Below are positions 8,919 through 63,122 of a stretch of DNA of 64,000 bases, piece by piece. How positions within the stretch are numbered: position 1 is the first letter of the stretch; every line of letters starts with the position of its first letter. Origin of the DNA: a virus. The translations under genes and the position numbers were made by a program. Below the pieces are notes generated by a model. It was not told where the DNA came from. It ran no database searches and was given only the letters and a program-made list of their open reading frames with translations. The stretch covers positions 18,937 to 82,936 of IMG/VR virus record IMGVR_UViG_3300047321_000170; one strand, written 5' to 3'.

Positions 8919-8936
8919 CCTACAAGGAAATGGATC

Positions 8937-9254
8937 ATGCCAGCTGGCCGCTACAACCTTTTGATCGAGCAAGGCGCAACCTTCCGCCTTCCGTTCATCT
9001 ATCGCGACGTGGGCGGTAATCCCGTCCAGTTCGACAACATGCAGGGCGTGATGACGCTGTTCGATCCGAATGGCACAGTAGTCCTGAAGAAAACATCACC
9101 AGATGGTGTGCGCCTCGCAGTCGCAGGCTCGATCGACATCGAGCTGACGGCGGTCGAGACCGCAGCCCTCTCGGTCGGTGGGACGTATCGCTTCGAGCTG
9201 GTCAACGGCACGGATGTCGATCGGGTGCTCAAGGGAACGTGGAGCCTCGAATGA
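8937..9254 (+). CDS. Small Ig-like fibre adaptor protein (BppU N-terminal-like)
   Basis: YNLLIEQGATF..GSIDIELT..T.AL..YRFEL..RVLKG pattern. Confidence 0.6.
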   Translation: MPAGRYNLLIEQGATFRLPFIYRDVGGNPVQFDNMQGVMTLFDPNGTVVLKKTSPDGVRLAVAGSIDIELTAVETAALSVGGTYRFELVNGTDVDRVLKGTWSLE

Positions 9255-11583: not shown

Positions 11584-11787
11584 ATGGAGCAAACGATGAC
11601 ACCCACCACTGTCACCACGCCCACCCCGAAGCTGTACCGAATTCAAGCCGTCATGCAGCAGCTCAGCGTCTCGCGCGCGACCGTCTATCGTCTCGTGAAC
11701 AACGGCAAGCTGAAGCTGGTCAAGATCGGCGAACGCTCCAGCGGCATCACCGCGGAGAGCGTTGACGCTCTGGTAGCCGGCGCCTAA
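11584..11787 (+). CDS. xis: AlpA-family excisionase
   Basis: LYRIQAVMQQLSVSRATVYRLV HTH; near att site and integrase. Confidence 0.85.
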   Translation: MEQTMTPTTVTTPTPKLYRIQAVMQQLSVSRATVYRLVNNGKLKLVKIGERSSGITAESVDALVAGA

Positions 11788-12101
11788 CCGGACTCCTCTC
11801 TCGGGGGCAGTTTCTCCGCTGCCCCAAGCGGGGCCACTCTCTGTGGCCCCGATCCCAAGAATCCCCGCCTCGACATCTCCTGCATCATCAGCACACGCAG
11901 CTTTTCCAGTGCGACCAGCTGGCCACCCACGTCAACTTCCCAGCAACGCTGCACGACAACCCGATAGCTTTCGACCTCGTCGAACAGCTCGCGCATTCGC
12001 ACGACCTCCAGCACGAGCGCGCGGATCTCGTCTTGAGGGTACGTCCGATACAGGCGTCGCAAGTCCGTCATCGTCGGCGTTCCGAAATCTGGCAATCGCA
12101 T
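11784..12101 (-). CDS. LexA-regulated hypothetical protein
   Basis: 105-aa ORF with SD AAGGA; SOS box immediately upstream. Confidence 0.75.
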   Translation of the reverse strand: MRLPDFGTPTMTDLRRLYRTYPQDEIRALVLEVVRMRELFDEVESYRVVVQRCWEVDVGGQLVALEKLRVLMMQEMSRRGFLGSGPQRVAPLGAAEKLPPREESG

Positions 12102-12116
12102 GGCACTTCCTTAATA

Positions 12117-12132
12117 CTGTACGGATATACAG
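12117..12132. promoter_or_regulatory. LexA (SOS) box
   Basis: TA-CTGT-ACGGATAT-ACAG-TA. Confidence 0.85.
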
Positions 12133-12496: not shown

Positions 12497-13780
12497 ATGG
12501 CGCGTAAAACACATCTTCTGGACGACATCCAGATCCGGCACTGGATCGCCAAGGGCGAGCCGGTCGCCAAGTCAGATGGTGAAGGCCTGACCTTTACCCT
12601 CTCCTCAGCCGGCACCGCGAGCTGGATCTTGCGCTACCGCCGAGGCGGCGGTCGCCGTAAGGAAATCACGATCGGCAACTATCCGGACATGACGCTCGCC
12701 GCGGCCCGAAAGGCTGCTCGTGCCCACCGCGTCGCGGTCGACAATGGGATAGACCCCGCAGCTGAGAAGAAGGTCGAGAAGGCGCGCTCCGTGCTCGCGT
12801 GGACCGTCAACGAGCTGTGCGACGACTACGAGGAGAAGCACCTGGTGGCGCCCCTCTCGAAGTCCACGATCTATTACCGGAAGTGGGACATCAAGAACAT
12901 CATCCGGCCTAAGCTGGGTTCGCTCGAAGTTCGCAAGATCCTGCCTGCTGACATCGTCTACATTCTGGAGAACAGCGGGCGCACCTGGACGGTGAATAAG
13001 CGAATCCTTACATCTATGAAGCAGCTCTTTGGCCATGCGCTAGGGAAGCGGATCATCGACGTGAACCCCGCCTTCGGTATCGAGATGAAGGCACTGTTCG
13101 GCAAACGCCCGCCCGTTCGCAAACGCCTGATGCTCACCGAGGGCGAGCTTCGCAAACTGCTGCCTGGCATTGACAAGAAGATCGGCCGCGAGAACGGCCT
13201 CATGCTGCGCGTGCTGCTGGCTACCTGCGTGCGAACGAACGAGCTGGTCATGGCCCGCAAGCAGTTCATCGATCTGAAGCGCGGCTCCTGGTTCGTACAC
13301 GACGAGTCGGTCAAGACTCGTCAAGGCTTCACCGTCCCGCTGGTTCCTGTCGTCATTGGCTGGATGAAAGAGCTGTACGCCCTGTCCGGAGACTCCGACT
13401 GGCTGTTGCCAGCTCGCAGCAACAAACGCCGCAACCGGCTTGGTGAAACTCATATCGGCAATACCACGCTGTGGGCCGCGATCACGCGAGCGTTCCAATC
13501 TGAGAAGCTGGAGATGCGTCGCTTCACGCCGCACGATACGCGCAGCACCGCCAAAAGCCATATGCGGAATCTGGGCATCTCGAACGAAGTCAGTGAGCTT
13601 GCGCTTAACCACAAGCTCAAAGGTATGGAAGGGATCTATGACGTGCGAGAAGAGATCCCCGAGCGACGCGAGGCGATGGAGATATGGGCGCAGTTCATTG
13701 CAGACTGCTGCGACGGTAAGGAACCGGAAACGGGCCGACCAACGAACGTGGTCGCATTGAGAAGGAAGGCTGCGGCTTGA
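12497..13780 (+). CDS. int: Tyrosine integrase (P4-like, arm-binding N-terminal domain)
   Basis: DGEGL..W..RY..IGNYP..LA.AR N-terminus; catalytic R, HDTR, LNH, Y. Confidence 0.95.
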   Translation: MARKTHLLDDIQIRHWIAKGEPVAKSDGEGLTFTLSSAGTASWILRYRRGGGRRKEITIGNYPDMTLAAARKAARAHRVAVDNGIDPAAEKKVEKARSVLAWTVNELCDDYEEKHLVAPLSKSTIYYRKWDIKNIIRPKLGSLEVRKILPADIVYILENSGRTWTVNKRILTSMKQLFGHALGKRIIDVNPAFGIEMKALFGKRPPVRKRLMLTEGELRKLLPGIDKKIGRENGLMLRVLLATCVRTNELVMARKQFIDLKRGSWFVHDESVKTRQGFTVPLVPVVIGWMKELYALSGDSDWLLPARSNKRRNRLGETHIGNTTLWAAITRAFQSEKLEMRRFTPHDTRSTAKSHMRNLGISNEVSELALNHKLKGMEGIYDVREEIPERREAMEIWAQFIADCCDGKEPETGRPTNVVALRRKAAA

Positions 13781-13810: not shown

Positions 13811-14044
13811 TTACTGTGCTGTCTGTTCAATCGGCCAAGGCATTTCCATACCTTCGCGAATGATTACCGCCATCTCGGTAGCTAGAACCAGCCGGATCTC
13901 TGGCGGCAAGTTCAACAGCGGATCTTTGATGTCCCTCCGGTCACACAGATCGTGCAGCACGCCTAGTGCAACGGCGTCCGCTCGATCAACTGGCTTGTGG
14001 CCGCTAAACGGGTACTGAATGCCTCTCGCGATGTCACGGTTCAT
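13811..14044 (-). CDS. Hypothetical protein
   Basis: ORF with GGAGG SD. Confidence 0.7.
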   Translation of the reverse strand: MNRDIARGIQYPFSGHKPVDRADAVALGVLHDLCDRRDIKDPLLNLPPEIRLVLATEMAVIIREGMEMPWPIEQTAQ

Positions 14045-14079
14045 GATTGATCCTCCAAGGTCTTAGCTGTCACTATAGC

Positions 14080-27475: not shown

Positions 27476-27655
27476 TTACTCCTGCGCAGCTTTTTGCGCG
27501 CCGACCAGCGCGATGGCCAGGTTGGCGTGCTCCGGGTGTGCATTGAGCAGATCGTGGAGCTGGTTGGCGAGCCCCCACACCTTCGCCTTGACGATAGGTT
27601 CGAGCTTGCCTATCTCGTCCTCGACGAGCTTCAGTTGATGCTGAGCGATGTTCAT
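27476..27655 (-). CDS. Small hypothetical protein (59 aa, not in ORF track)
   Basis: MNIAQHQLKL..AQE*; leader carries both RNA-target motifs. Confidence 0.6.
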   Translation of the reverse strand: MNIAQHQLKLVEDEIGKLEPIVKAKVWGLANQLHDLLNAHPEHANLAIALVGAQKAAQE

Positions 27656-27680
27656 TGTTTTGATCCGTGGTGGTGGTGAT

Positions 27681-33056: not shown

Positions 33057-33284
33057 TCAGACCTTCTGGAAAGGGAAAGTCTGGGGGTTCTTCTTGATCA
33101 GCCGGCTGAAGGTGCTGCCGAACGATTCCGCGGTGGTCAGTTGATCGACCGTGCCTTGATCGACGTTGCTGTACTGATACTCGTCGCCGTTCTTCACGAA
33201 GACGATGTTCAGCTTCTTGTTGTTCGCGTCATAGGCGAACGCCGAGATTTGTGACGAAGTCACAGGTGTGTAGCCAGGTTTCAT
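33057..33284 (-). CDS. KTSC-domain protein
   Basis: SSQI..AYD...L.I.F..G..YQY.NV...AES.GS.F. Confidence 0.85.
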   Translation of the reverse strand: MKPGYTPVTSSQISAFAYDANNKKLNIVFVKNGDEYQYSNVDQGTVDQLTTAESFGSTFSRLIKKNPQTFPFQKV

Positions 33285-33356
33285 GTTTCGATCCAGTAGA
33301 TGAAAGTTATTACAGTAGGACGCTCGGTGGTGGACGTGCGTCTTACCGTATGCTGT

Positions 33357-37002: not shown

Positions 37003-37782
37003 TCAGTCAAGGAAGAAGTGGCCGTTCTCTTCGGTGAATCCGTTATGCCGCAGATCCCCTTCCCAGTAGTGCTCCCAGTCGATGTAGCCGAACATCGGAT
37101 GCTGGTCGTCGATCAGCCCGGTCTCGACGGCCCAGTCCATCGCGAAGTCCTTTACGCTGTCCCAGTGGCCGCGATATGCGTCGCGGAACTTGTCGACCGA
37201 CGCGTCCTTGAGGTCGCCGCTCTGGCATGTATTGACCCAGATCATAAAGGCTTCCATCTCTTCGTCGCTGTCCAGCTCGCCGAGCACTTCCTCGATCTTC
37301 GCGATCTCGGACAGCGGCGTGTACTCGCCGATCAGCCCGTTCGGGTAGCCTTCGTGATCGTGGATCGCGTACTCCTCTGACGAGGGCAACTTGCCTGCCC
37401 CGTGGCAGCGCTCGCACACCTTGACCTCGATGTTCTCGCCGGCCTGGAACGCCTCCAGCGCGGCAAGGCGTGTCGCGCCCACGTAGTTCATCGCGTCGAG
37501 GTCCTGCTCAGCCACCCAGCGACCATCGGCCAGCATGCGGGCGTTCCAGCCCTTCGTCTCGATGGCGTTGTCCAGCTGCTCTTCGAGTGTGTTGTCCCCC
37601 TCGCAGTCGGGGCACGTCACCAGCACGTTCGGGAAGCGGCTGGTCAATAAGACCTTGTCTCGTACTTCCTCGTACAGCTCGTCGGCGTCCATGCCTTCGG
37701 TGTCGATCCAGGTGCCATGCAGAACGCCGTTGTTGTACGACGCAAGACAGGCCACATAAATGCGGCGGTCGGTTGTAGTCAT
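37003..37782 (-). CDS. ardA: ArdA-family antirestriction protein with inserted Zn-finger segment
   Basis: IYVACLASYNNG.LHG.W, EYAIHD.EG, YRG.W, YIDWE; very acidic. Confidence 0.88.
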   Translation of the reverse strand: MTTTDRRIYVACLASYNNGVLHGTWIDTEGMDADELYEEVRDKVLLTSRFPNVLVTCPDCEGDNTLEEQLDNAIETKGWNARMLADGRWVAEQDLDAMNYVGATRLAALEAFQAGENIEVKVCERCHGAGKLPSSEEYAIHDHEGYPNGLIGEYTPLSEIAKIEEVLGELDSDEEMEAFMIWVNTCQSGDLKDASVDKFRDAYRGHWDSVKDFAMDWAVETGLIDDQHPMFGYIDWEHYWEGDLRHNGFTEENGHFFLD

Positions 37783-37931: not shown

Positions 37932-38150
37932 TTACAGGTTTGTAGCCATCGAGTTGTGCAACGTTTCGCGCTCGTCTGCGGCGACTTGCGTGCTGAGGCG
38001 GGTCTTGCGGTTCTTCAGGCCCGCGACCTTTGCAGCCCAGTGCTCTTGAGCGGCTTGCGCTTCGAGCAGTTCGAGTTCGCACTCGCGCAGTTGGTGCTTC
38101 GCTTCCGCTTTCGGGTTTTTGAAATTAAACAGGCTGGCCAGATAACGCAT
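37932..38150 (-). CDS. Hypothetical coiled-coil protein
   Basis: ORF with SD. Confidence 0.65.
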   Translation of the reverse strand: MRYLASLFNFKNPKAEAKHQLRECELELLEAQAAQEHWAAKVAGLKNRKTRLSTQVAADERETLHNSMATNL

Positions 38151-38181
38151 GATTGATCCTTCAATGTGGTGGTGGTGGTGA

Positions 38182-46414: not shown

Positions 46415-46723
46415 TCAGTGGCTGGTGTAGATGACCGAACCTTCGAACTGCGCATCGACCGTGACCTTCCCGTTGTAGTCACGGCGAACGTTCCAGATGG
46501 TGGCGCCGGTTTCGATCTCGAATTCGCGCAGCATGGCTTCCATCTTCAGGCCGAGCAGTTGAGCTGCGGTCTTGATCTCACGAGCGTGGTACGGAGCAGG
46601 CGCTTCGTTCTTGACTATCGTGAGCGCCGGTTGGGTGTTGGGTGTATCTGCGCTGTAGGCTTCGACGAGAGCGTCGGCAGCGGATTGTTGTGCGGGGCCA
46701 GCGTTGACGGTGGTGGTCGTCAT
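46415..46723 (-). CDS. Hypothetical protein
   Basis: GAGGA SD. Confidence 0.65.
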   Translation of the reverse strand: MTTTTVNAGPAQQSAADALVEAYSADTPNTQPALTIVKNEAPAPYHAREIKTAAQLLGLKMEAMLREFEIETGATIWNVRRDYNGKVTVDAQFEGSVIYTSH

Positions 46724-46740
46724 GATTTGATCCTCAAAAT

Positions 46741-47648: not shown

Positions 47649-47918
47649 TCACGTCGCCACCGCTTCTTCCACGGTGTACGTGTAGCGTGCCGAGCCGAGC
47701 TTGCCGTCCATCGCGATGACGATCCCGCATTGCGCAGCGAGACGATCGATGAAGTCTTCGAAGCTGTAGAAGTTGCGCGTATCCACGTTCTCGATCATGA
47801 GTTCTTCGAGCACAACGTGAATAGCGGGGCCAGCGTAGGAAACTCGCTTCTTCATATCCGCGATCATGTCGCCGAAGAAGTGGAAGTAACCGATCTCTTC
47901 TTTCGTGGTGGTGGACAC
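47649..47918 (-). CDS. Hypothetical protein
   Basis: AAGGA SD, GTG start. Confidence 0.55.
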   Translation of the reverse strand: MSTTTKEEIGYFHFFGDMIADMKKRVSYAGPAIHVVLEELMIENVDTRNFYSFEDFIDRLAAQCGIVIAMDGKLGSARYTYTVEEAVAT

Positions 47919-47935
47919 GAGTTCTTGATCCTTTG

Positions 47936-48487: not shown

Positions 48488-48778
48488 CTATGCGAACAGC
48501 GGTTCGAGCGGCATGTGCATCGACGCGTCGCTGAACTGTTTGAGATGACTCATGAGAACGCGCGGGTTCTGGCGATTGGCCAGCATCACACGCAGCACGT
48601 TGTCGATGGTCTTGAGTGTTGCGTCGTCGGTGACTGCGCCGTGCTCAGCTGCATAGAGCTTGAGCATCAACGTGCGCAGTCGAGCGGGAATCGCGGTGTT
48701 GACTTCATGCGCCGCGCACTCGGCCATCGTGTCGAACACGAGACCGTCGCAGGAGCGGTAGCGTTTGAGTTCACGCAT
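48488..48778 (-). CDS. Hypothetical protein
   Basis: N-terminus LKRY...DG.V....A..HE resembles the neighbouring gene. Confidence 0.6.
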   Translation of the reverse strand: MRELKRYRSCDGLVFDTMAECAAHEVNTAIPARLRTLMLKLYAAEHGAVTDDATLKTIDNVLRVMLANRQNPRVLMSHLKQFSDASMHMPLEPLFA

Positions 48779-49118
48779 TGCCAGCCTCTTGCGGCAGCGC
48801 GTTGAAGCCCTTCTCAACGAGGATGTGGTTAGCCGTCTCGCGGCTGCGAATGCGCTGATCCATCTCGTTGACCGCTTCGGCGTTTTCGAGGAAGTCCGAC
48901 AGGATCTCGATCACGTTCTGCGCGTCTCCCATGATGGCTTCAGCGATGGCGTTCGCCGTGTGATCGCTCAACTCGGCGATGCACTTCTCCTTGATCAGCT
49001 TCCCCAGTTGCTTCGGGATCGCGGTGAAGTATTCGTGGCGAATGGCCAGCTCGTGTTCGTTATGCACCACGCCGTCGCGAGTTTCGTAGCGCTTGAGGGT
49101 CTTCAGATGCTTGTTCAT
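48771..49118 (-). CDS. Hypothetical protein
   Basis: LKRYETRDGVVH..HE. Confidence 0.65.
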   Translation of the reverse strand: MNKHLKTLKRYETRDGVVHNEHELAIRHEYFTAIPKQLGKLIKEKCIAELSDHTANAIAEAIMGDAQNVIEILSDFLENAEAVNEMDQRIRSRETANHILVEKGFNALPQEAGNA

Positions 49119-49251
49119 TAGTCTTGATCCTGAGATTGGAGTTGGTACAGGAACGGCAGCGAGTCAAGCGACGAATCGAGTTCGCGCAAGTGCTCACCGA
49201 CCAGTTCGGCCAGTGTTTCAAAGCTCATGGGTTAGTTCGTGGTGGTGTTAA

Positions 49252-49432: not shown

Positions 49433-49831
49433 TCATGCTGCGATCTCCTGCGTCAACGCGTGGTGATACACGTCATGCAGGTAGGTCTTGATGTCGTTGC
49501 GGTTGCGGCCCGTGATCTTGATGACCGCGCCCCATTCGAGCGATGGCGTGACGATGACTTTGTGCTCGGTCCAGCCGTCATACATCCCCACGTCATTCAT
49601 GTGGTGGAAGTCGGCTTGAAAGACCAGCTTGTTGGATTTGCACTCGTGCGCCAGCAGCTTTGTGCCTGCGTCGATACCAGAGCCGCTAGGCAGCGGCTTG
49701 AGCATGGCGTCGAGGCGTTCTTCGTGCATGTCGATGCACGAACGCTGCGAGTCGTTAGCTGAAGGGGATTTACAACGCTCGATGGTGGCGAGCTGACGAG
49801 CAATCGCCTGATAAAGCGGTTGAGGTTTCAT
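49433..49831 (-). CDS. Hypothetical protein
   Basis: LPSGSGID.G..FHHMN..G.YDGWTEH..TG.N motif. Confidence 0.75.
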   Translation of the reverse strand: MKPQPLYQAIARQLATIERCKSPSANDSQRSCIDMHEERLDAMLKPLPSGSGIDAGTKLLAHECKSNKLVFQADFHHMNDVGMYDGWTEHKVIVTPSLEWGAVIKITGRNRNDIKTYLHDVYHHALTQEIAA

Positions 49832-52697: not shown

Positions 52698-53261
52698 ATG
52701 TCCCAAGATAAATTCACCCGAGACCAATTCACCGTCGAGCTTGCGAGAGAGTGGTTTGCCTACGATGCTGAAGCCGGCGTAGTAATCAGGATCAAGAATC
52801 CTAAGAAGGGTCCGCAGACGGCCGGCACGCGAGCCGGAGCGCCTCATAAAGCGAGTGGCATGCGCCAGGTCATCTTTCGTGGCGTGAGCGTCTATGAGCA
52901 GCAGCTCGTCTGGGCGCTATGCAAGGGAGCGTGGCCGACATCCAAGCTCAGGTTCAAAGACGGCGACCCTCTCAACTGTCGAATTGAGAACTTGTGTGGG
53001 GCAACGAATACAGCAGATGATTACAAGGCGTTACAGTCCAAGACTGTCAGGGAATCCTTACCCCTCTCTGGCGTAATTCCTACCTCAAGTGGGAAGTTCA
53101 AGGCTCAAATTTTCCGAGAGCGGATGATCTATCTAGGCACGTTCGATACTCCTGAGAGTGCAAGTGCGGCATACCTGACAGCCAAGTCAGTCCTTCATGA
53201 TCCGCTTAATAGAGGGAAATCGACAGTTGAGCTACTTGAGGGACTACCAAAACTGGGTTAA
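52698..53261 (+). CDS. HNH-AP2 protein with degenerate HNH active site
   Basis: G.WP..(LRF)KDGD.LNCRIENL; AP2-like GV..GKFKAQI..YLGTFDT.E.AS.AY. Confidence 0.8.
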   Translation: MSQDKFTRDQFTVELAREWFAYDAEAGVVIRIKNPKKGPQTAGTRAGAPHKASGMRQVIFRGVSVYEQQLVWALCKGAWPTSKLRFKDGDPLNCRIENLCGATNTADDYKALQSKTVRESLPLSGVIPTSSGKFKAQIFRERMIYLGTFDTPESASAAYLTAKSVLHDPLNRGKSTVELLEGLPKLG

Positions 53262-53318
53262 GGAAACCTTAAAGCCAAGTTTTGAGAGGTTGACTTTAGA
53301 GTTTGGTAGCTCCAACCC

Positions 53319-53347
53319 TTGCAAACGCACCTCAAGATGTTTATAGT
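53319..53347 (+). promoter_or_regulatory. sigma70 promoter for predicted sRNA
   Basis: TTGCAA-N17-TATAGT. Confidence 0.75.
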
Positions 53348-53351
53348 TCCG

Positions 53352-53520
53352 TCTCAAGTGCTGCGTGATCTGTGGTGGTGAGCGCAGCAGCAGAGATGTC
53401 ATGTCTCTGTCACGACTGAGGGGTGGCCAGCTCCAAAGTCAACCGTCCTAGACGGTAGTTTTGATCCATTGTAGAAGCTCAAAAGCCCCACCGACTAGCT
53501 ATCGGCGGGGCTTTTCCTTT
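53352..53520 (+). ncRNA. Predicted structured antisense sRNA with GUGGUGGUG loop
   Basis: Promoter and terminator with no convincing ORF between them; hairpins at 53360-53388, 53391-53409 and 53442-53456; complementary to repeated leader motifs. Confidence 0.7.
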
Positions 53521-53522
53521 TT
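53481..53522 (+). terminator. Intrinsic terminator (possibly bidirectional)
   Basis: AAAAGCCCCACCGA-CTAGCTA-TCGGCGGGGCTTTT followed by CCTTTTT. Confidence 0.85.
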
Positions 53523-53550
53523 CAGCCTGAGAATCTAGGGCTGAACTCCA

Positions 53551-53578
53551 AGACTACTGTGTTTACATACAGCGTCAA
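53551..53578 (-). promoter_or_regulatory. Leftward sigma70 promoter with LexA box as spacer
   Basis: Minus strand TTGACG-CTGTATGTAAACACAG-TAGTCT. Confidence 0.75.
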
Positions 53579-53609
53579 TACTTGTACTCCTTGTTGAACA
53601 CCTGCAGGT

Positions 53610-56129
53610 CTAGGCGGTGACGGGCTGCTCTCCAGAATGGTCCTTCGTCGTACTCGACGTACTCCCCGCTCCCACAAGTGTGAGGTTCTTGTACTCGACA
53701 GACTGGCCTCCCATCGGGGTTTGCTCGATCGTAAGTTTGAATCCGAACTCGGTAGCCAATTCCCTCATCTTTGCTCTGAACTGAGTCGATCCAACAGGCC
53801 GCGCAGATCCCGGCCCGACGCAGAAGGACCAATATGCCTGATAGAGCTTCGTTTCCGGTACGGATGTGGGGGTCGAAGTCTTCGACCCAGCGGACTCCTC
53901 TTGTTGGAGAGCGAGAATCCGCACTTTCCCGCTCTCCATGAGAAAAAAACGTACGCTGTTGTTCAGGTTCGCTACTTCACGCATGATCTGGGAGTGCGAA
54001 GTCGGGATCGTGAACTCGTTCGTGAGCTTCAGTCGTGACATCGCCTGCACTGCCCACGCAACGATGGCCTCACGCTCTTCAACCACGATGGCATCACCGA
54101 GATCCAGCCGACGCTCCGACGCTTTCACCGGACGGTTAAATTGGAGTACGAGCCATCTCCGATTGAACCCTTCCGATGTATCTTCCGTGCGCGGGTAGTG
54201 ATTCGACGCAAACCAATGCGTACAGATAGGGTTGAACCGGAAAATTTGCCCGCCCTTCATCTGTCCGGACATCTCAGCGCCGTCGATGATGTCCTTGAAC
54301 TTCTGGCCATCGACAGTCTTCTTCTCGCTCAGCTCACCAGCCACGTTGATGATCTTTTCGAACATTTGCGTCGGCAAAAACTTGTCGCTCCACTCGTTAG
54401 GAGGCACCGCGGAACGAGCTGTGTCTGGCACAAGCGCCTGTGCGATCTTCAACAGCTGTGATTTCCCTGACTTCGGAGCGCCTTGCAGCAAAATCGCACG
54501 TTGATAACGCGGTCCAAGACCGAAAAGCGTAACTGCCAAGGCTTCTTGGAGAGCCTGAATCTTGGCCTCGCAATCCTCGTCTTCACCCCAACTCTTCCTC
54601 AGAAAATCGAAAAACATCGTCGAATGACCAGCCGCTTCCGGCAAATAGCGGAACGGAAGCGTGTACGTCATGCCGTAACCCTGGTCATGCGGCAGCAATT
54701 TGAGGTCTTCCGTGAGAAAACCGTTCGCGAAGTTGACGCCCTTAACATCAATCGACTTAATTCCCTGTGTCATGAGCATTTTCATGACTTGAGAGACGCC
54801 GCGAATGTCGTTGAACTTCTTGCAGGCCGCGAGATGCCCATAATCAGAGCTGATCCGGGACATGATGTATTGGTCGTCCACCTTCTCCCAATGTGAACCG
54901 GCCCATTTCCACACGAACCCATTATGAGCGCGCACGGCATACAGCTGCTCCAGGTCTTTAATCACCGCGCGAGCGATCTCAGACTGGTCCTGGCCTTTGA
55001 TCTCGCCCATGCGCAGCTCTTTGATACGCGCTTTTAGGCTGGAAACACGAATTCCCATGCCAGCAGTCTGCGCGATGAACTCAAGCAGCCGGTCCTCTTC
55101 CAGCTTATTCAAAGTCGATGTGGTCGCAACCTTTTGCAACGCCTTGTCGACCGATGTTGCTCGACCCGGTGACTCCTTCGGATAGCGCTCAAACTCGTCA
55201 ATCAGGAACTGTTTCAAGTCCTCGAACGACCACTCCTCCTGCTCCTTCGTGATCTCAAGCCCCCACGACTCCTTCTCGGCGTCCGTCATGCCCTCGTCCC
55301 AGCCGGTCGGCAGCACCTTCTGCTTCTCGAACACGTCTCGCTGGAGGAACTTCAGCATGTTGCGGATGTGCTTATCCACATCGATAGGGTCGCCCGCGAC
55401 GTTCTCCACGAAGTCAGCTGCGTACGCCTGAAGCATGCCGATGGCTTCCTTCAATGTGCGATCGCCGCGGATCACCGCGTAAGCGAACAGTCCTGCGCGC
55501 TCAGTCAGGCTCGTGTCGCGCGAGCCCGCCGAAGCATAGTCCACCACGCGCGTCCAACCAGAGTGCGACAGCTCGACGCCGGCCTCGGTGAGCGCGGCGC
55601 GCAGCAGAACCTCGATGTTCTCGTCGAGCGGCTGGAGATTCTTGTGAACGTCAACCAGGTCGCAGTTAGCCTGGTACGGCAGCTGCGTGTCCGGATGGAT
55701 CGACGGCGGCAGCACCGACTGCGTGCGAGCCGACAGCATTTCGCAGATCGTCTGCCCGCTGGTGTTCTTGATCCGGAAGGTCTTCAGGCCCGAGTAGCGA
55801 TACGCGAGCATGACGCCCTTCTTGCCGATGCGGCGCCAAGGAGAAACCGGCAACAGCTGCTCGATCACGTTCATCAACCGCACGTCTTCCGTGTCGATGT
55901 CCATCATCACGATGCCCGACTGCGGGCCGAGCACGATGCCGATGTTCGAGTCGCGGCACTGCTCAATCCAGCTGGCCTGTTGCTCAGGCTCGACCGGATG
56001 ATCGAAGTAACGCGACCAGTCGTTCGGGATAGGCTTCTTTTCGCGCGGGTACAGCGGAATCACTGGCAGGCCGGCCGCGTAGTAGCGCGGCGCGGTCTCA
56101 GCGAAGATGGGGAGGCGTTCGATCTTCAT
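53610..56129 (-). CDS. Bifunctional primase-polymerase / D5-like SF3 helicase
   Basis: PVIPL..KKP, NIGI, DID, PPSIHP; GAPKSGKS Walker A, ASN, RRW. Confidence 0.9.
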   Translation of the reverse strand: MKIERLPIFAETAPRYYAAGLPVIPLYPREKKPIPNDWSRYFDHPVEPEQQASWIEQCRDSNIGIVLGPQSGIVMMDIDTEDVRLMNVIEQLLPVSPWRRIGKKGVMLAYRYSGLKTFRIKNTSGQTICEMLSARTQSVLPPSIHPDTQLPYQANCDLVDVHKNLQPLDENIEVLLRAALTEAGVELSHSGWTRVVDYASAGSRDTSLTERAGLFAYAVIRGDRTLKEAIGMLQAYAADFVENVAGDPIDVDKHIRNMLKFLQRDVFEKQKVLPTGWDEGMTDAEKESWGLEITKEQEEWSFEDLKQFLIDEFERYPKESPGRATSVDKALQKVATTSTLNKLEEDRLLEFIAQTAGMGIRVSSLKARIKELRMGEIKGQDQSEIARAVIKDLEQLYAVRAHNGFVWKWAGSHWEKVDDQYIMSRISSDYGHLAACKKFNDIRGVSQVMKMLMTQGIKSIDVKGVNFANGFLTEDLKLLPHDQGYGMTYTLPFRYLPEAAGHSTMFFDFLRKSWGEDEDCEAKIQALQEALAVTLFGLGPRYQRAILLQGAPKSGKSQLLKIAQALVPDTARSAVPPNEWSDKFLPTQMFEKIINVAGELSEKKTVDGQKFKDIIDGAEMSGQMKGGQIFRFNPICTHWFASNHYPRTEDTSEGFNRRWLVLQFNRPVKASERRLDLGDAIVVEEREAIVAWAVQAMSRLKLTNEFTIPTSHSQIMREVANLNNSVRFFLMESGKVRILALQQEESAGSKTSTPTSVPETKLYQAYWSFCVGPGSARPVGSTQFRAKMRELATEFGFKLTIEQTPMGGQSVEYKNLTLVGAGSTSSTTKDHSGEQPVTA

Positions 56130-61833: not shown

Positions 61834-61934
61834 GCCCACCACCGGGCCGCAGGAACTGGCTGAAGTACCCCGCGCGCGACACCGTCCACCACCGGCCGCG
61901 CGCGGCAGACGAACAAAACTCTTTGGATCAAAAC
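61834..61934 (+). promoter_or_regulatory. Capsid leader with two CCACCAC hairpins and TGGATCAAAAC
   Basis: GCCC-ACCACC-GGGC; CCG-TCCACCAC-CGG within CCGCGCGCG/CGCGCGCGG; TGGATCAAAAC at 61924-61934. Confidence 0.7.
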
Positions 61935-63122
61935 ATGGCCGATCTGATCGATATCAAGCGTGAAGCACCCGAAGTAGTGCTTAGCAATCTGCGTCCGGAC
62001 GACGCGAGCGACCAAGGCCGCTCGATCCTCGCCGGTCAAAAGCTGGTTCGCCTCGCGGCGGAAACCGGCCTCAACCTGCGTGACTACCTCACGCTCGCGA
62101 TCGACCCGCGCAAAGCCGAGCAACCGGCTCGCTTCGAAGGCCTCAACGGCTATGAAGCAGCGCTGTCGTACCTGAACCTGCCGGTTAAGCAAGACCTCGA
62201 AAACGGCGTGCTCCTGCAAGCCGCGAGCGAGACGTTCCAGACCTATCCGGGTACGCGCGCAATGTTCCCGGAAGTGATGGACGATGTGCTGCGCTGGCGC
62301 AACCGTCAGGACCAGCTGGAATCGGTCGGCCCGCTGCTCGCGCAATCGCGCACGATCAGCGGCACCGAGATGATCTCGACCTTCGTCGACGACGACAGCG
62401 CAGAGCGCGGTACGCAGTCGGTCGCTGAATTCGGCCGCGTGCCGGTTCGCACGATCCGTACGTCGCAGTCCAGCGTCGGCATCTTCAAGCACGGCTCGGG
62501 CTACCGTACTTCGTACGAGTTCAACCGCCGCGCTTCGCTTGACATCATGACGCCGTTTGCGGCGCGCGTGGGTCGCGAGCTGGAAATCTCAAAGGTGCGC
62601 GCAGCAACGGGCATCCTGATCAACGGCGACGGCATCAACGCCGCAGCCCCGGTGGTTAAGGTCAGCCAGTTCGGCGGCGACGGCACGAAGGCGTTCTCGA
62701 CGAACTACAAGGCTCTGGCCAAGTGGCTCATGTCGCGCGCCAAAGCTGGCTACCCGATCGACACGATCGTCGGCAACTACGACATGTTCGTCGAGCTGCT
62801 GTTCATGTTCCAGCCGGTCGTGGGTCTGGGCACGACCACGGACATTCAGGCGCTCGTCGCACAAGGCACGCCGAAGATCAACACAAGCCTGCCGATTCTG
62901 AACAAGTCGGTGGACTTCGTGCTGTCGTCTTCGATGCCGGAAGGTCAGCTGCTGGGCATGACGAAGGACGAAACGCTCGAAGAGCTGATCGAAGCTGGCT
63001 CGAACATCTCGGAAAACGAGCGTTCGATCCTGAACCAGTCGATCACGTACGTGCGTACCGAAAACACCGGCTACAAGCTCGCGTTCGGCGACACGCGCCA
63101 GATCCTCGACACCACGCAGTAA
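61935..63122 (+). CDS. Major capsid protein
   Basis: About 395 aa after scaffold and decoration genes; V.E...P..K.G...SYE pattern; followed by terminator. Confidence 0.85.
   Translation: MADLIDIKREAPEVVLSNLRPDDASDQGRSILAGQKLVRLAAETGLNLRDYLTLAIDPRKAEQPARFEGLNGYEAALSYLNLPVKQDLENGVLLQAASETFQTYPGTRAMFPEVMDDVLRWRNRQDQLESVGPLLAQSRTISGTEMISTFVDDDSAERGTQSVAEFGRVPVRTIRTSQSSVGIFKHGSGYRTSYEFNRRASLDIMTPFAARVGRELEISKVRAATGILINGDGINAAAPVVKVSQFGGDGTKAFSTNYKALAKWLMSRAKAGYPIDTIVGNYDMFVELLFMFQPVVGLGTTTDIQALVAQGTPKINTSLPILNKSVDFVLSSSMPEGQLLGMTKDETLEELIEAGSNISENERSILNQSITYVRTENTGYKLAFGDTRQILDTTQ

Follow-up and report, generated by a model that had tools for sequence, protein, structure and literature searches.

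A stretch of viral DNA of 64,000 nucleotides (nt), corresponding to bases 18937-82936 of the 82,936-base-pair (bp) phage genome G000 (IMG/VR record IMGVR_UViG_3300047321_000170; the window, below), carries the candidate gene of a structured small RNA of about 170 nt. We consider it probable that this RNA is a two-site antisense RNA, acting in trans, that would block ribosome loading on many of the phage's own messenger RNAs (mRNAs). Its first pairing segment, GUGGUGG (seed 1), lies in a hairpin loop and is complementary to the word CCACCAC. The core of the second (seed 2) reads GUUUUGAUCC; its complement GGAUCAAAAC ends 1-6 nt ahead of the start codon in about ten genes, that of the major capsid protein among them. 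On the sequence side, the reading is carried by the fold of the RNA, its conservation, strand and exposure, its leader-specific complementarity, its covariation with the leaders and the co-occurrence of RNA and leader tags. Among the sequencing runs searched, only DNA runs from rhizosphere and soil contain the stretch, and no RNA run was listed; one of the DNA runs is the probable source, so that the genome was probably assembled from a rhizosphere metagenome.

The RNA gene and its family

The RNA gene occupies a gap of 348 bp, flanked upstream by an HNH endonuclease gene and on the other side by the 3' end of a convergent primase gene. Its predicted parts and the two flanking genes are the following:

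53319-53347, + strand: sigma-70-like promoter (TTGCAA at 53319-53324, 17-nt spacer, TATAGT at 53342-53347)
53352-53522, + strand: predicted structured small RNA, about 170 nt, its 5' end placed from the promoter
53359-53389, + strand: hairpin P1, stem 53359-53366 / 53382-53389, loop GAUCUGUGGUGGUGA at 53367-53381
53372-53378, + strand: seed 1, GUGGUGG, within the P1 loop (L1)
53420-53434, + strand: hairpin P3, carrying the invariant GUGGCCAGC at 53423-53431
53442-53456, + strand: hairpin P4, directly 5' of seed 2, with 4 of its 5 pairs compensatory
53457-53470, + strand: seed 2, AGUUUUGAUCCAUU, core at 53458-53467, GUUUYGAUC conserved
53457-53480, + strand: predicted unpaired linker of 24 nt between P4 and the terminator, seed 2 being its first part
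53481-53522, + strand: intrinsic terminator and U-rich tail, stem 53481-53493 / 53503-53515, loop ACUAGCUAU
52698-53261, + strand: HNH endonuclease gene (Pfam HNH_3, E = 2e-8), adjoining the RNA gene upstream in 6/6 RNA-bearing genomes
53610-56129, - strand: DNA primase gene, convergent with the RNA gene

Sixteen related loci were fetched from IMG/VR with the primase protein as query, 12 of which carry a homolog of the gap sequence; homologous loci number 14 in total, including one in a prophage of Burkholderia paludis MSh1, the bearers forming a group of soil and Burkholderia phages. In the alignment of 12 homologs, TTG in the -35 box and TAnAnT in the -10 box were invariant. The four named helices displayed 93.5% paired cells and 17 compensatory pairs out of 31, against 34-52% paired cells in slid controls, where partners were shifted by 1-3 columns. 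The stem of P1 (helix 1) was 100% paired with 3 compensatory pairs, the terminator helix (helix 4) displayed 7 compensatory pairs and was conserved together with its U tail, and P2, the hairpin between P1 and P3, was a variable element. U.G pairs occurring in 10/12 and 12/12 sequences are compatible with the + strand only, and this strand also had the lower folding z-score (-3.7 versus -2.5 for the - strand, over 147 nt). Judged from such comparisons, the locus is a real conserved RNA gene as a structure, since its promoter positions are invariant, its helices co-vary well beyond the slid controls and its U.G pairs fit one strand only.

Both putative seeds are predicted to be exposed. The 15-nt P1 loop was identical in 12/12 homologs. 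As for seed 2, an earlier note on this DNA had located a second antisense segment, AGTTTTGATCCATT, at 53457-53470 of the + strand, where it is indeed found. Burial of the segment in the mature RNA, which the note had named as an objection, is not what prediction indicates: seed 2 is unpaired in the consensus fold, and GUUUYGAUC displayed mean unpaired probabilities of 0.40-0.74 over the 12 homologs.

Two other elements of the RNA attracted attention. The P3 element, in and around the loop, is invariant in 12/12 homologs, and its UGGCCA is self-complementary; its complement displayed no leader enrichment in G000 (CTGGCCA, 4/44 in the 7-mer scan described below) and no target was found for it there. 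Likewise, the terminator loop (53494-53502) is near-invariant, reading (A)YYAGCUAYC with the palindrome UAGCUA, while its stem co-varies. Such loop conservation would be unusual for a mere terminator.

A covariance model of the family (R1) scored 163 bits on the window RNA and recovered one strong copy per genome (118-184 bits) in G000 to G005 and in the B. paludis MSh1 contig; copies were additionally recorded in loci L004, L010, L012-L014 and L018. By the same model the RNA is lacking from Achromobacter siphophages JWF (filters off) and 2-1, which are the named relatives of G000 (primase gene only, 73-77% DNA identity), and from genome G008. The HNH and primase genes of JWF and 2-1 directly adjoin each other, leaving no gap; JWF displays two HNH genes at the corresponding place, and no RNA. 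An integrase is encoded only in G000, G002 and G005, and the RNA also occurs in the integrase-less G001, G003 and G004. A role as pure lysogeny device was rejected, as the RNA is not tied to integrase-bearing genomes.

No Rfam family reached its gathering score over the whole window. With E values up to 10 on 53280-53600, no C4 match appeared, and the best hit was sodF_sRNA on the terminator (26 bits versus a cutoff of 46). Scans of metagenome contigs returned 0 matches in one case and 16 in the other, none of these being a full homolog by the model. A 16-mer scan of genome contigs mostly gave chance matches: that in B. anthina (L088) was rejected by the model, and only B. paludis MSh1 (L109) was a true one. 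Neither this RNA nor a leader tag of the CCACCAC type was found described in a literature search (supplementary files not covered).

Leader motifs complementary to the two seeds

Genes were called with a codon-usage heuristic caller, which misses small or atypical genes such as the HNH gene. Leader zones were taken to run, on the sense strand, from -45 to +12 relative to called starts and make up 3.8-4.5% of both strands (4.4% in G000); they replaced an earlier start-proximity count based on raw open reading frames (ORFs), whose background reached 12-16% in GC-rich DNA. For every 7-mer of the RNA, the reverse complement was counted in these zones. Two peaks only emerged, namely the L1 loop and seed 2. 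In G000, the complement of seed 1, CCACCAC, fell in leader zones in 34 of 60 occurrences (about 2.7 expected). Enrichment of GGATCAA, the complement of seed 2, had been proposed as a check in the earlier note; positionally it is enriched, with 7 of 22 copies in leader zones for about 1 expected (p=3e-5). The seed-2 peak recurred in G005 (10/23, p=4e-9), in G002 (TCAAAAC 6/10, ATCAAAA 7/13) and, with its own variant, in G001 (4/6 and 6/23).

The raw abundance of GGATCAA is a different matter. The window contains 21 copies versus 6.4 in shuffles, 9 of the 21 directly before starts. Sibling words are equally common genome-wide (AGATCAA 27, CGATCAA 26 and GGATCGA 30 versus GGATCAA 23), so that the raw excess largely reflects coding and codon bias and the real signal is one of position and strand. 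Over the six RNA-bearing genomes (G000 to G005), GGATCRAA occurred in sense leader zones in 23 of 64 cases and its complement in 1 of 64; for CCACCAC the figures were 161/350 and 4/350. In 25 of the 39 cases where GGATCRA occurred in a leader, its 3' end was placed 1-6 nt ahead of the start codon; CCACCAC formed clusters from -16 to 0 and from +11 to +20. Both tags fall, by these positions relative to start codons, inside the region covered by the 30S ribosomal subunit. Downstream CCACCAC copies at +11 to +20 (21 genes in G000-G005; e.g. 46712-46718 and 47905-47914, - strand) read ACC-ACC-ACC, i.e. threonine runs, so that the tag is sometimes encoded within the first codons.

The matches of seed 2 to gene starts listed in the earlier note were all retrieved. 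TGGATCAAAAC occupies 61924-61934, directly before the capsid ATG at 61935; the two long - strand matches, GGATCAAAACT at 49864-49854 and GGATCAAAAC at 27666-27657, are present, and AATGGATCA at 8929-8937 abuts its ATG. Copies of GGATCAA said to lie near starts at 14047, 38153, 47925 and 49124 do so (2-6 nt before them), whereas the one given at 46726 belongs at 46727. CCACCAC was again counted nearby in 7 of the 9 listed leaders. Two further sites came to light, at 1208-1214 (ATG at 1221) and, as the G-variant GGATCGAAAC, at 33294-33285 (ATG at 33284). The candidate targets of seed 2 are:

61924-61937, + strand: major capsid leader; UGGAUCAAAAC, then AUG; 11-nt match; CCACCAC at 61886-61892 in an upstream hairpin loop
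49854-49864, - strand: leader of the gene for a 132-amino-acid (aa) protein, 49433-49831; GGAUCAAAACU (11 nt), then CCACCACCAC
27657-27666, - strand: leader of a small gene upstream of DNA polymerase; CACCACCACCAC-GGAUCAAAAC-A-AUG, start at 27655; G001 ortholog GGATCGAAAC
33285-33294, - strand: leader of the KTSC-domain gene 33057-33284; GGAUCGAAAC, then AUG; one G.U pair with seed 2
1208-1214, + strand: leader of the 127-aa gene 1221-1604; CCACCAC-loop hairpin, then GGAUCAAAC; G001 ortholog GGATCGAAAC
8929-8937, + strand: leader of the 105-aa gene 8937-9254; AAUGGAUCA abutting AUG; CCACCAC-loop hairpin upstream
46727-46733, - strand: leader of the 102-aa gene 46415-46723; GGAUCAAAUC, then AUG; CCACCAC upstream and at +8
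38153-38159, - strand: leader of the 72-aa gene 37932-38150; (CAC)n run, GGAUCAAUC, AUG
47925-47931, - strand: leader of the 89-aa gene 47649-47918; GGAUCAAGAACUC, GUG, then CCACCACCAC
49124-49130, - strand: leader of the 115-aa gene 48771-49118; GGAUCAAGACUA, then AUG
14047-14053, - strand: leader of the 77-aa gene 13811-14044; GGAGGAUCAAUC, then AUG; no ortholog found in the ortholog search

Few of these target proteins were named by PHROGs or Pfam. The capsid protein is 73% identical to the major head protein of JWF, and its orthologs display the leaders GGATCGAAAC in G001 and GGATCAGAAC in G004. Predicted pairing with seed 2 spans leader positions -10 to -1; in G001, G002 and G004, where the RNA reads AUGUUUYGAUC, the duplex reaches into the AUG itself. 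An expanded form of the tag was met in G003 (L030-L034), where the ortholog of window gene 37932-38150 is preceded by five tandem CCACCACCA units.

Many leaders share a common layout, in which a GC hairpin with a (U)CCACCAC loop is followed 10-40 nt later by GGAUCRAAAC and then AUG (the capsid gene, the leaders labelled T1 and T7, and the gene at 8937). The share of CCACCAC copies lying in the loop of a hairpin (stem of 4 pairs or more) was 16/50 (G000), 11/46, 11/50, 9/51, 10/44 and 12/46 in the six genomes, where control words gave 5/39, 8/61, 4/43, 5/59, 6/56 and 8/58. Orthologous CCACCAC hairpin stems co-vary by eye, and many tags stand in unstructured leaders. Genes displaying CCACCAC only include those of ArdA, a GH19 endolysin, an exonuclease, the integrase, the primase and the portal protein. 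The ArdA antirestriction gene (37003-37782, - strand; Pfam E = 8e-28) has the leader CACCACCACATC-ATG, which is devoid of a Shine-Dalgarno (SD) sequence.

The main argument came from covariation between RNA and leaders. In G001 (and fragment L005), the RNA reads GUUUCGAUCC instead of GUUUUGAUCC, a U-to-C change, and six orthologous G001 leaders have turned GGATCAA into GGATCGA (capsid, T1, T4, T5, T6 and T8). Among motif-bearing leaders, the ratio of A to G at this position was 10:1 in G000 and 1:7 in G001 (Fisher p=0.0012). The exceptions are as RNA pairing would predict: in G000 and G005 the only G, found in the leader of the KTSC gene (GGATCGAAAC), is able to form a wobble pair with U, and G.U pairing likewise accommodates the G004 capsid leader GGATCAGAAC and the G003 leader GGATCAGGAC. 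A U in the RNA goes along with A or G in the targets and a C with G only. This was also visible in a matrix of cognate matches (at least 9 contiguous pairs, at most 1 G.U), where the C-type seed matched 7 leaders of its own genome versus 0-3 in each of the other five, and U-type seeds also matched G001 leaders. The pairing of a second RNA segment with a second leader motif, as the earlier note had it, therefore gains support, the segment being predicted as exposed, enriched in its leader complements and co-varying in G001.

RNA and tags also go together across genomes. When 7-mers were ranked by leader-zone enrichment without prior bias, genome by genome, the top word was CCACCAC, CACCACC or ACCACCA in 6/6 RNA-bearing genomes; GGATCAA came fifth in G005 and GATCAAA came sixth in G002. 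CCACCAC was not leader-enriched in JWF, 2-1 and G008, which lack the RNA (3/32, 0/35 and 1/17); there, GGATCRAA counted 0/5, 0/4 and 1/10, and the top leader words were SD-like. A last control concerned bacterial genomes, Burkholderia serving as stand-in for the host of G000, as the motif might have been equally common in the spacers of host ribosome-binding sites (RBSs). It is not. In B. paludis MSh1 (8.6 Mb), GGATCAAN{2,6}ATG gave 51 matches, 6 of them in the prophage, no more than 31 kb away from its RNA gene (C1:222476), and the exact 13-mer GGATCAAAACATG occurred 4 times in the prophage and once elsewhere in the genome. B. anthina displayed 45 matches to the former and 0 to the latter. 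The tag is no general Burkholderia RBS feature.

Proposed mode of action and rival explanations

According to the mechanism proposed here, the RNA would be made from its own sigma-70-type promoter and end at its intrinsic terminator. The GUGGUGG of its 15-nt apical loop would pair with CCACCAC at about -20 to +20 of many starts, often in the loop of a GC hairpin, and the single-stranded GUUUUGAUCC located 5' of the terminator would pair with GGAUCRAAAC between a weak GGA Shine-Dalgarno and AUG. Binding at one or both sites, inside the 30S footprint, would block translation initiation, perhaps followed by mRNA decay. A single RNA would in this way act as a brake on a set of genes comprising the capsid gene and several small early genes and, via CCACCAC alone, may also hold back ArdA, endolysin, integrase, primase and portal. 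Occlusion of the ribosome is geometrically plausible, as pairing would cover -10 to -1 and, in three lineages, the AUG. Loop-loop kissing between L1 and the CCACCAC hairpins is also plausible from the predicted folds. We infer the transcription of the RNA, the sign of its effect, the kissing contacts and the timing of its action.

A number of points weigh against this reading. The RNA is itself predicted, from sequence and fold alone, with a 5' end deduced from the promoter, and repression as the outcome is read from site geometry. The order of the seeds is opposite to that of a colinear duplex with most leaders. Covariation at seed 2 stems from a single variant lineage (G001 with fragment L005), where one leader retains GGATCAAAC-ATG, and seed 1 is beyond such testing because it is invariant. 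G003 and G004 have kept seed 2 with few matching leaders (a weak 3/12 and 4/15), and the capsid gene of G003 displays an ordinary SD. A duplexfold scan against 20 shuffled seeds gave no discrimination at the thresholds used, whether for seed 2 (14 leaders versus a shuffled mean of 13.8 in G000) or for L1 (85 versus 87.2); energies of cognate and non-cognate pairs differed only modestly for capsid leaders. Gene starts rest on a heuristic caller. Finally, about 30 leaders have swapped the SD for CCACCAC, only where the RNA exists, which a pure brake explains poorly and which fits an activator or adaptor at least as well.

This last point bears on explanations that retain the pairing and give it an outcome other than repression, such as activation or licensing of SD-less CCACCAC leaders, mRNA stabilisation or processing, or a decoy function. 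Replacement of the SD restricted to RNA-bearing genomes looks like dependence rather than mere repressibility, and the presence of the RNA in the three integrase-less genomes does not suggest a purely lysogenic silencer. Yet seed 2 would pair across -10 to -1, and into the AUG in G001, G002 and G004, while most CCACCAC copies, at -16 to 0 or +11 to +20, fall within the 30S footprint. Target RBS regions displayed a weak predicted fold and were largely unstructured; activation by unfolding is disfavoured, since these regions are predicted to be open, with no inhibitory fold and no visible anti-antisense logic. We hold such outcomes to be rather unlikely. A particular version, which we consider very unlikely, takes RNA and CCACCAC as a phage-private initiation code, where the RNA would be a surrogate anti-SD docking tagged mRNAs to ribosomes; the UGAUCC of the RNA is complementary to the GGAUCA found directly before the anti-SD in Burkholderia 16S ribosomal RNA (GGATCACCTCCTT). 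Were it true, the phage would have the means to translate its own messages selectively.

It might also be argued that the GUGGUGG loop alone is functional, GUUUUGAUCC being a conserved spacer, a chaperone-binding stretch or a leader relic whose leader matches are incidental products of a weak SD (GGA) and an A-rich spacer. The genome-wide count of GGATCAA, no higher than that of its sibling words, would agree with this, and so would the few seed-2 targets of G003 and G004, the energy scan and the resemblance, in G002, of the seed's opposite strand to a leader with ATG. This explanation is unlikely, as six orthologous leaders changed A to G exactly where the RNA changed U to C, the C-type seed matches leaders of its own genome preferentially, and the motif is absent from leaders of RNA-less relatives but for the single G008 case and rare in host genomes. 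Still harder to credit is an element acting on the opposite strand or as DNA, i.e. an extra copy of the leader tag before a tiny ORF, or a protein site, the copies drifting together. It is true that a 19-codon ORF opens in the window on the - strand, which reads ATGGATCAAAAC..., that the terminator is approximately symmetric and that a promoter-like site with a LexA box points into the - strand in G000 and G005. This ORF is, however, conserved neither in frame nor in length (19 codons in G000, 14 in G002 and 6 in G001), and the invariant U.G pairs, the conserved promoter and the better folding all designate the + strand. Neither the strict mRNA-strand specificity of both tags nor the asymmetry by which A or G stands opposite U and only G opposite C would be expected of a DNA or protein site.

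The LexA-type box just mentioned, CTGTGTTTACATACAG (CTGT-N8-ACAG, 53557-53572), has the RNA terminator on one side and the primase stop on the other, and is contained in a - strand promoter-like TTGACG...TAGTCT directed antisense through the RNA gene. It is also present in G005 and L014 and absent from G001-G004; LexA boxes as a general part of the system were rejected, their occurrence being limited to the G000/G005 subclade. A second, AT-rich LexA-type box (CTGTACGGATATACAG, 12117-12132) lies directly upstream of a family-less 105-aa gene (11784-12101, - strand), which adjoins an AlpA/excisionase-like gene (11584-11787) and a tyrosine integrase gene (12497-13780).

Relation to described regulatory RNAs and significance

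The earlier note had compared the pairing by two seeds with the C4 RNA of phage P1, a parallel that holds as an analogy (two exposed segments, covariation) and fails as kinship, given the lack of an Rfam C4 match, the RNA's own promoter and terminator and its dispersed targets. Passages of a published account describe c4 of P1 and P7 as a trans-acting phage RNA in which two short segments pair around the RBS and block translation, c4 and its target co-varying between related phages and giving heteroimmunity (PMC12197685). Like c4, the present RNA has two predicted exposed segments (the L1 loop and the 3' linker), whose complements are the only leader-enriched ones among its segments, and it co-varies with its targets between relatives (U-to-C in G001, A-to-G in six leaders). 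Unlike c4, it has its own promoter and terminator between the HNH and primase genes; its putative targets, dispersed from 1208 to 61934, amount to at least 10 leaders (at least 30 for the loop seed) rather than one antirepressor operon, and some of the genomes that have it lack an integrase. The c4 RNA arises by processing of the transcript of its target's operon, which is that of a single target, the antirepressor.

In GcvB of enterobacteria, another parallel, an unpaired G/U-rich region base-pairs with numerous mRNAs, at C/A-rich elements located in the RBS or close to it; GcvB is a host RNA acting on host transporter mRNAs. The G/U-rich seed facing C/A-rich leader elements and the motif-defined regulon recall GcvB, whereas the restriction of the CA-rich tag to genomes with the RNA and the presence of a second seed do not. 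A global role of GcvB is mentioned in the passages concerned (PMC12197685). No sequence or structural homology to GcvB or another described small RNA family was found in Rfam at either threshold. The intrinsic terminator with its U tail, preceded by a predicted single-stranded seed, is shared with trans-acting small RNAs of the Hfq type. Two-site recognition with loop-loop contacts near the RBS is known from OxyS-fhlA and CopA/CopT, with one target each. A 15-nt loop is likewise predicted in the present RNA; kissing is deduced here, and seed 2 is linear, not looped.

Among phage RNAs, the CI RNA of P4 is a small immunity RNA complementary to two sites in phage transcripts, which causes premature transcription termination in one operon; in the present phages, many genes have such sites at their start codons, and U-tracts are missing from the target hairpins. 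VpdS of vibriophage VP882 and PreS of lambda are presented, in the passages seen on them, as phage-encoded, trans-acting, Hfq-associated small RNAs that act mainly on host RNAs (PMC12197685). The proposed targets here are, in contrast, a tagged set of the phage's own leaders. By analogy, this RNA would work like c4, OxyS or GcvB, though it is a member of none of their families.

To our knowledge, the phage antisense RNAs described so far (c4, sar, OOP, CI) each control one neighbouring operon, and phage trans-acting small RNAs have mostly been described on host RNAs. One uncatalogued RNA family here appears to address, via two separate seeds, a tagged set of the phage's own messages, among them those for anti-restriction, several small early genes and the major capsid protein, and for seed 2 nature itself supplies the compensatory-mutation experiment. 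B. paludis MSh1 is a cultured lysogen carrying the RNA gene and is available for testing. If the reading is true, RNA-based global control of the phage gene programme would be a normal regulatory layer, and heteroimmunity among related phages would find a simple basis in differing seeds.

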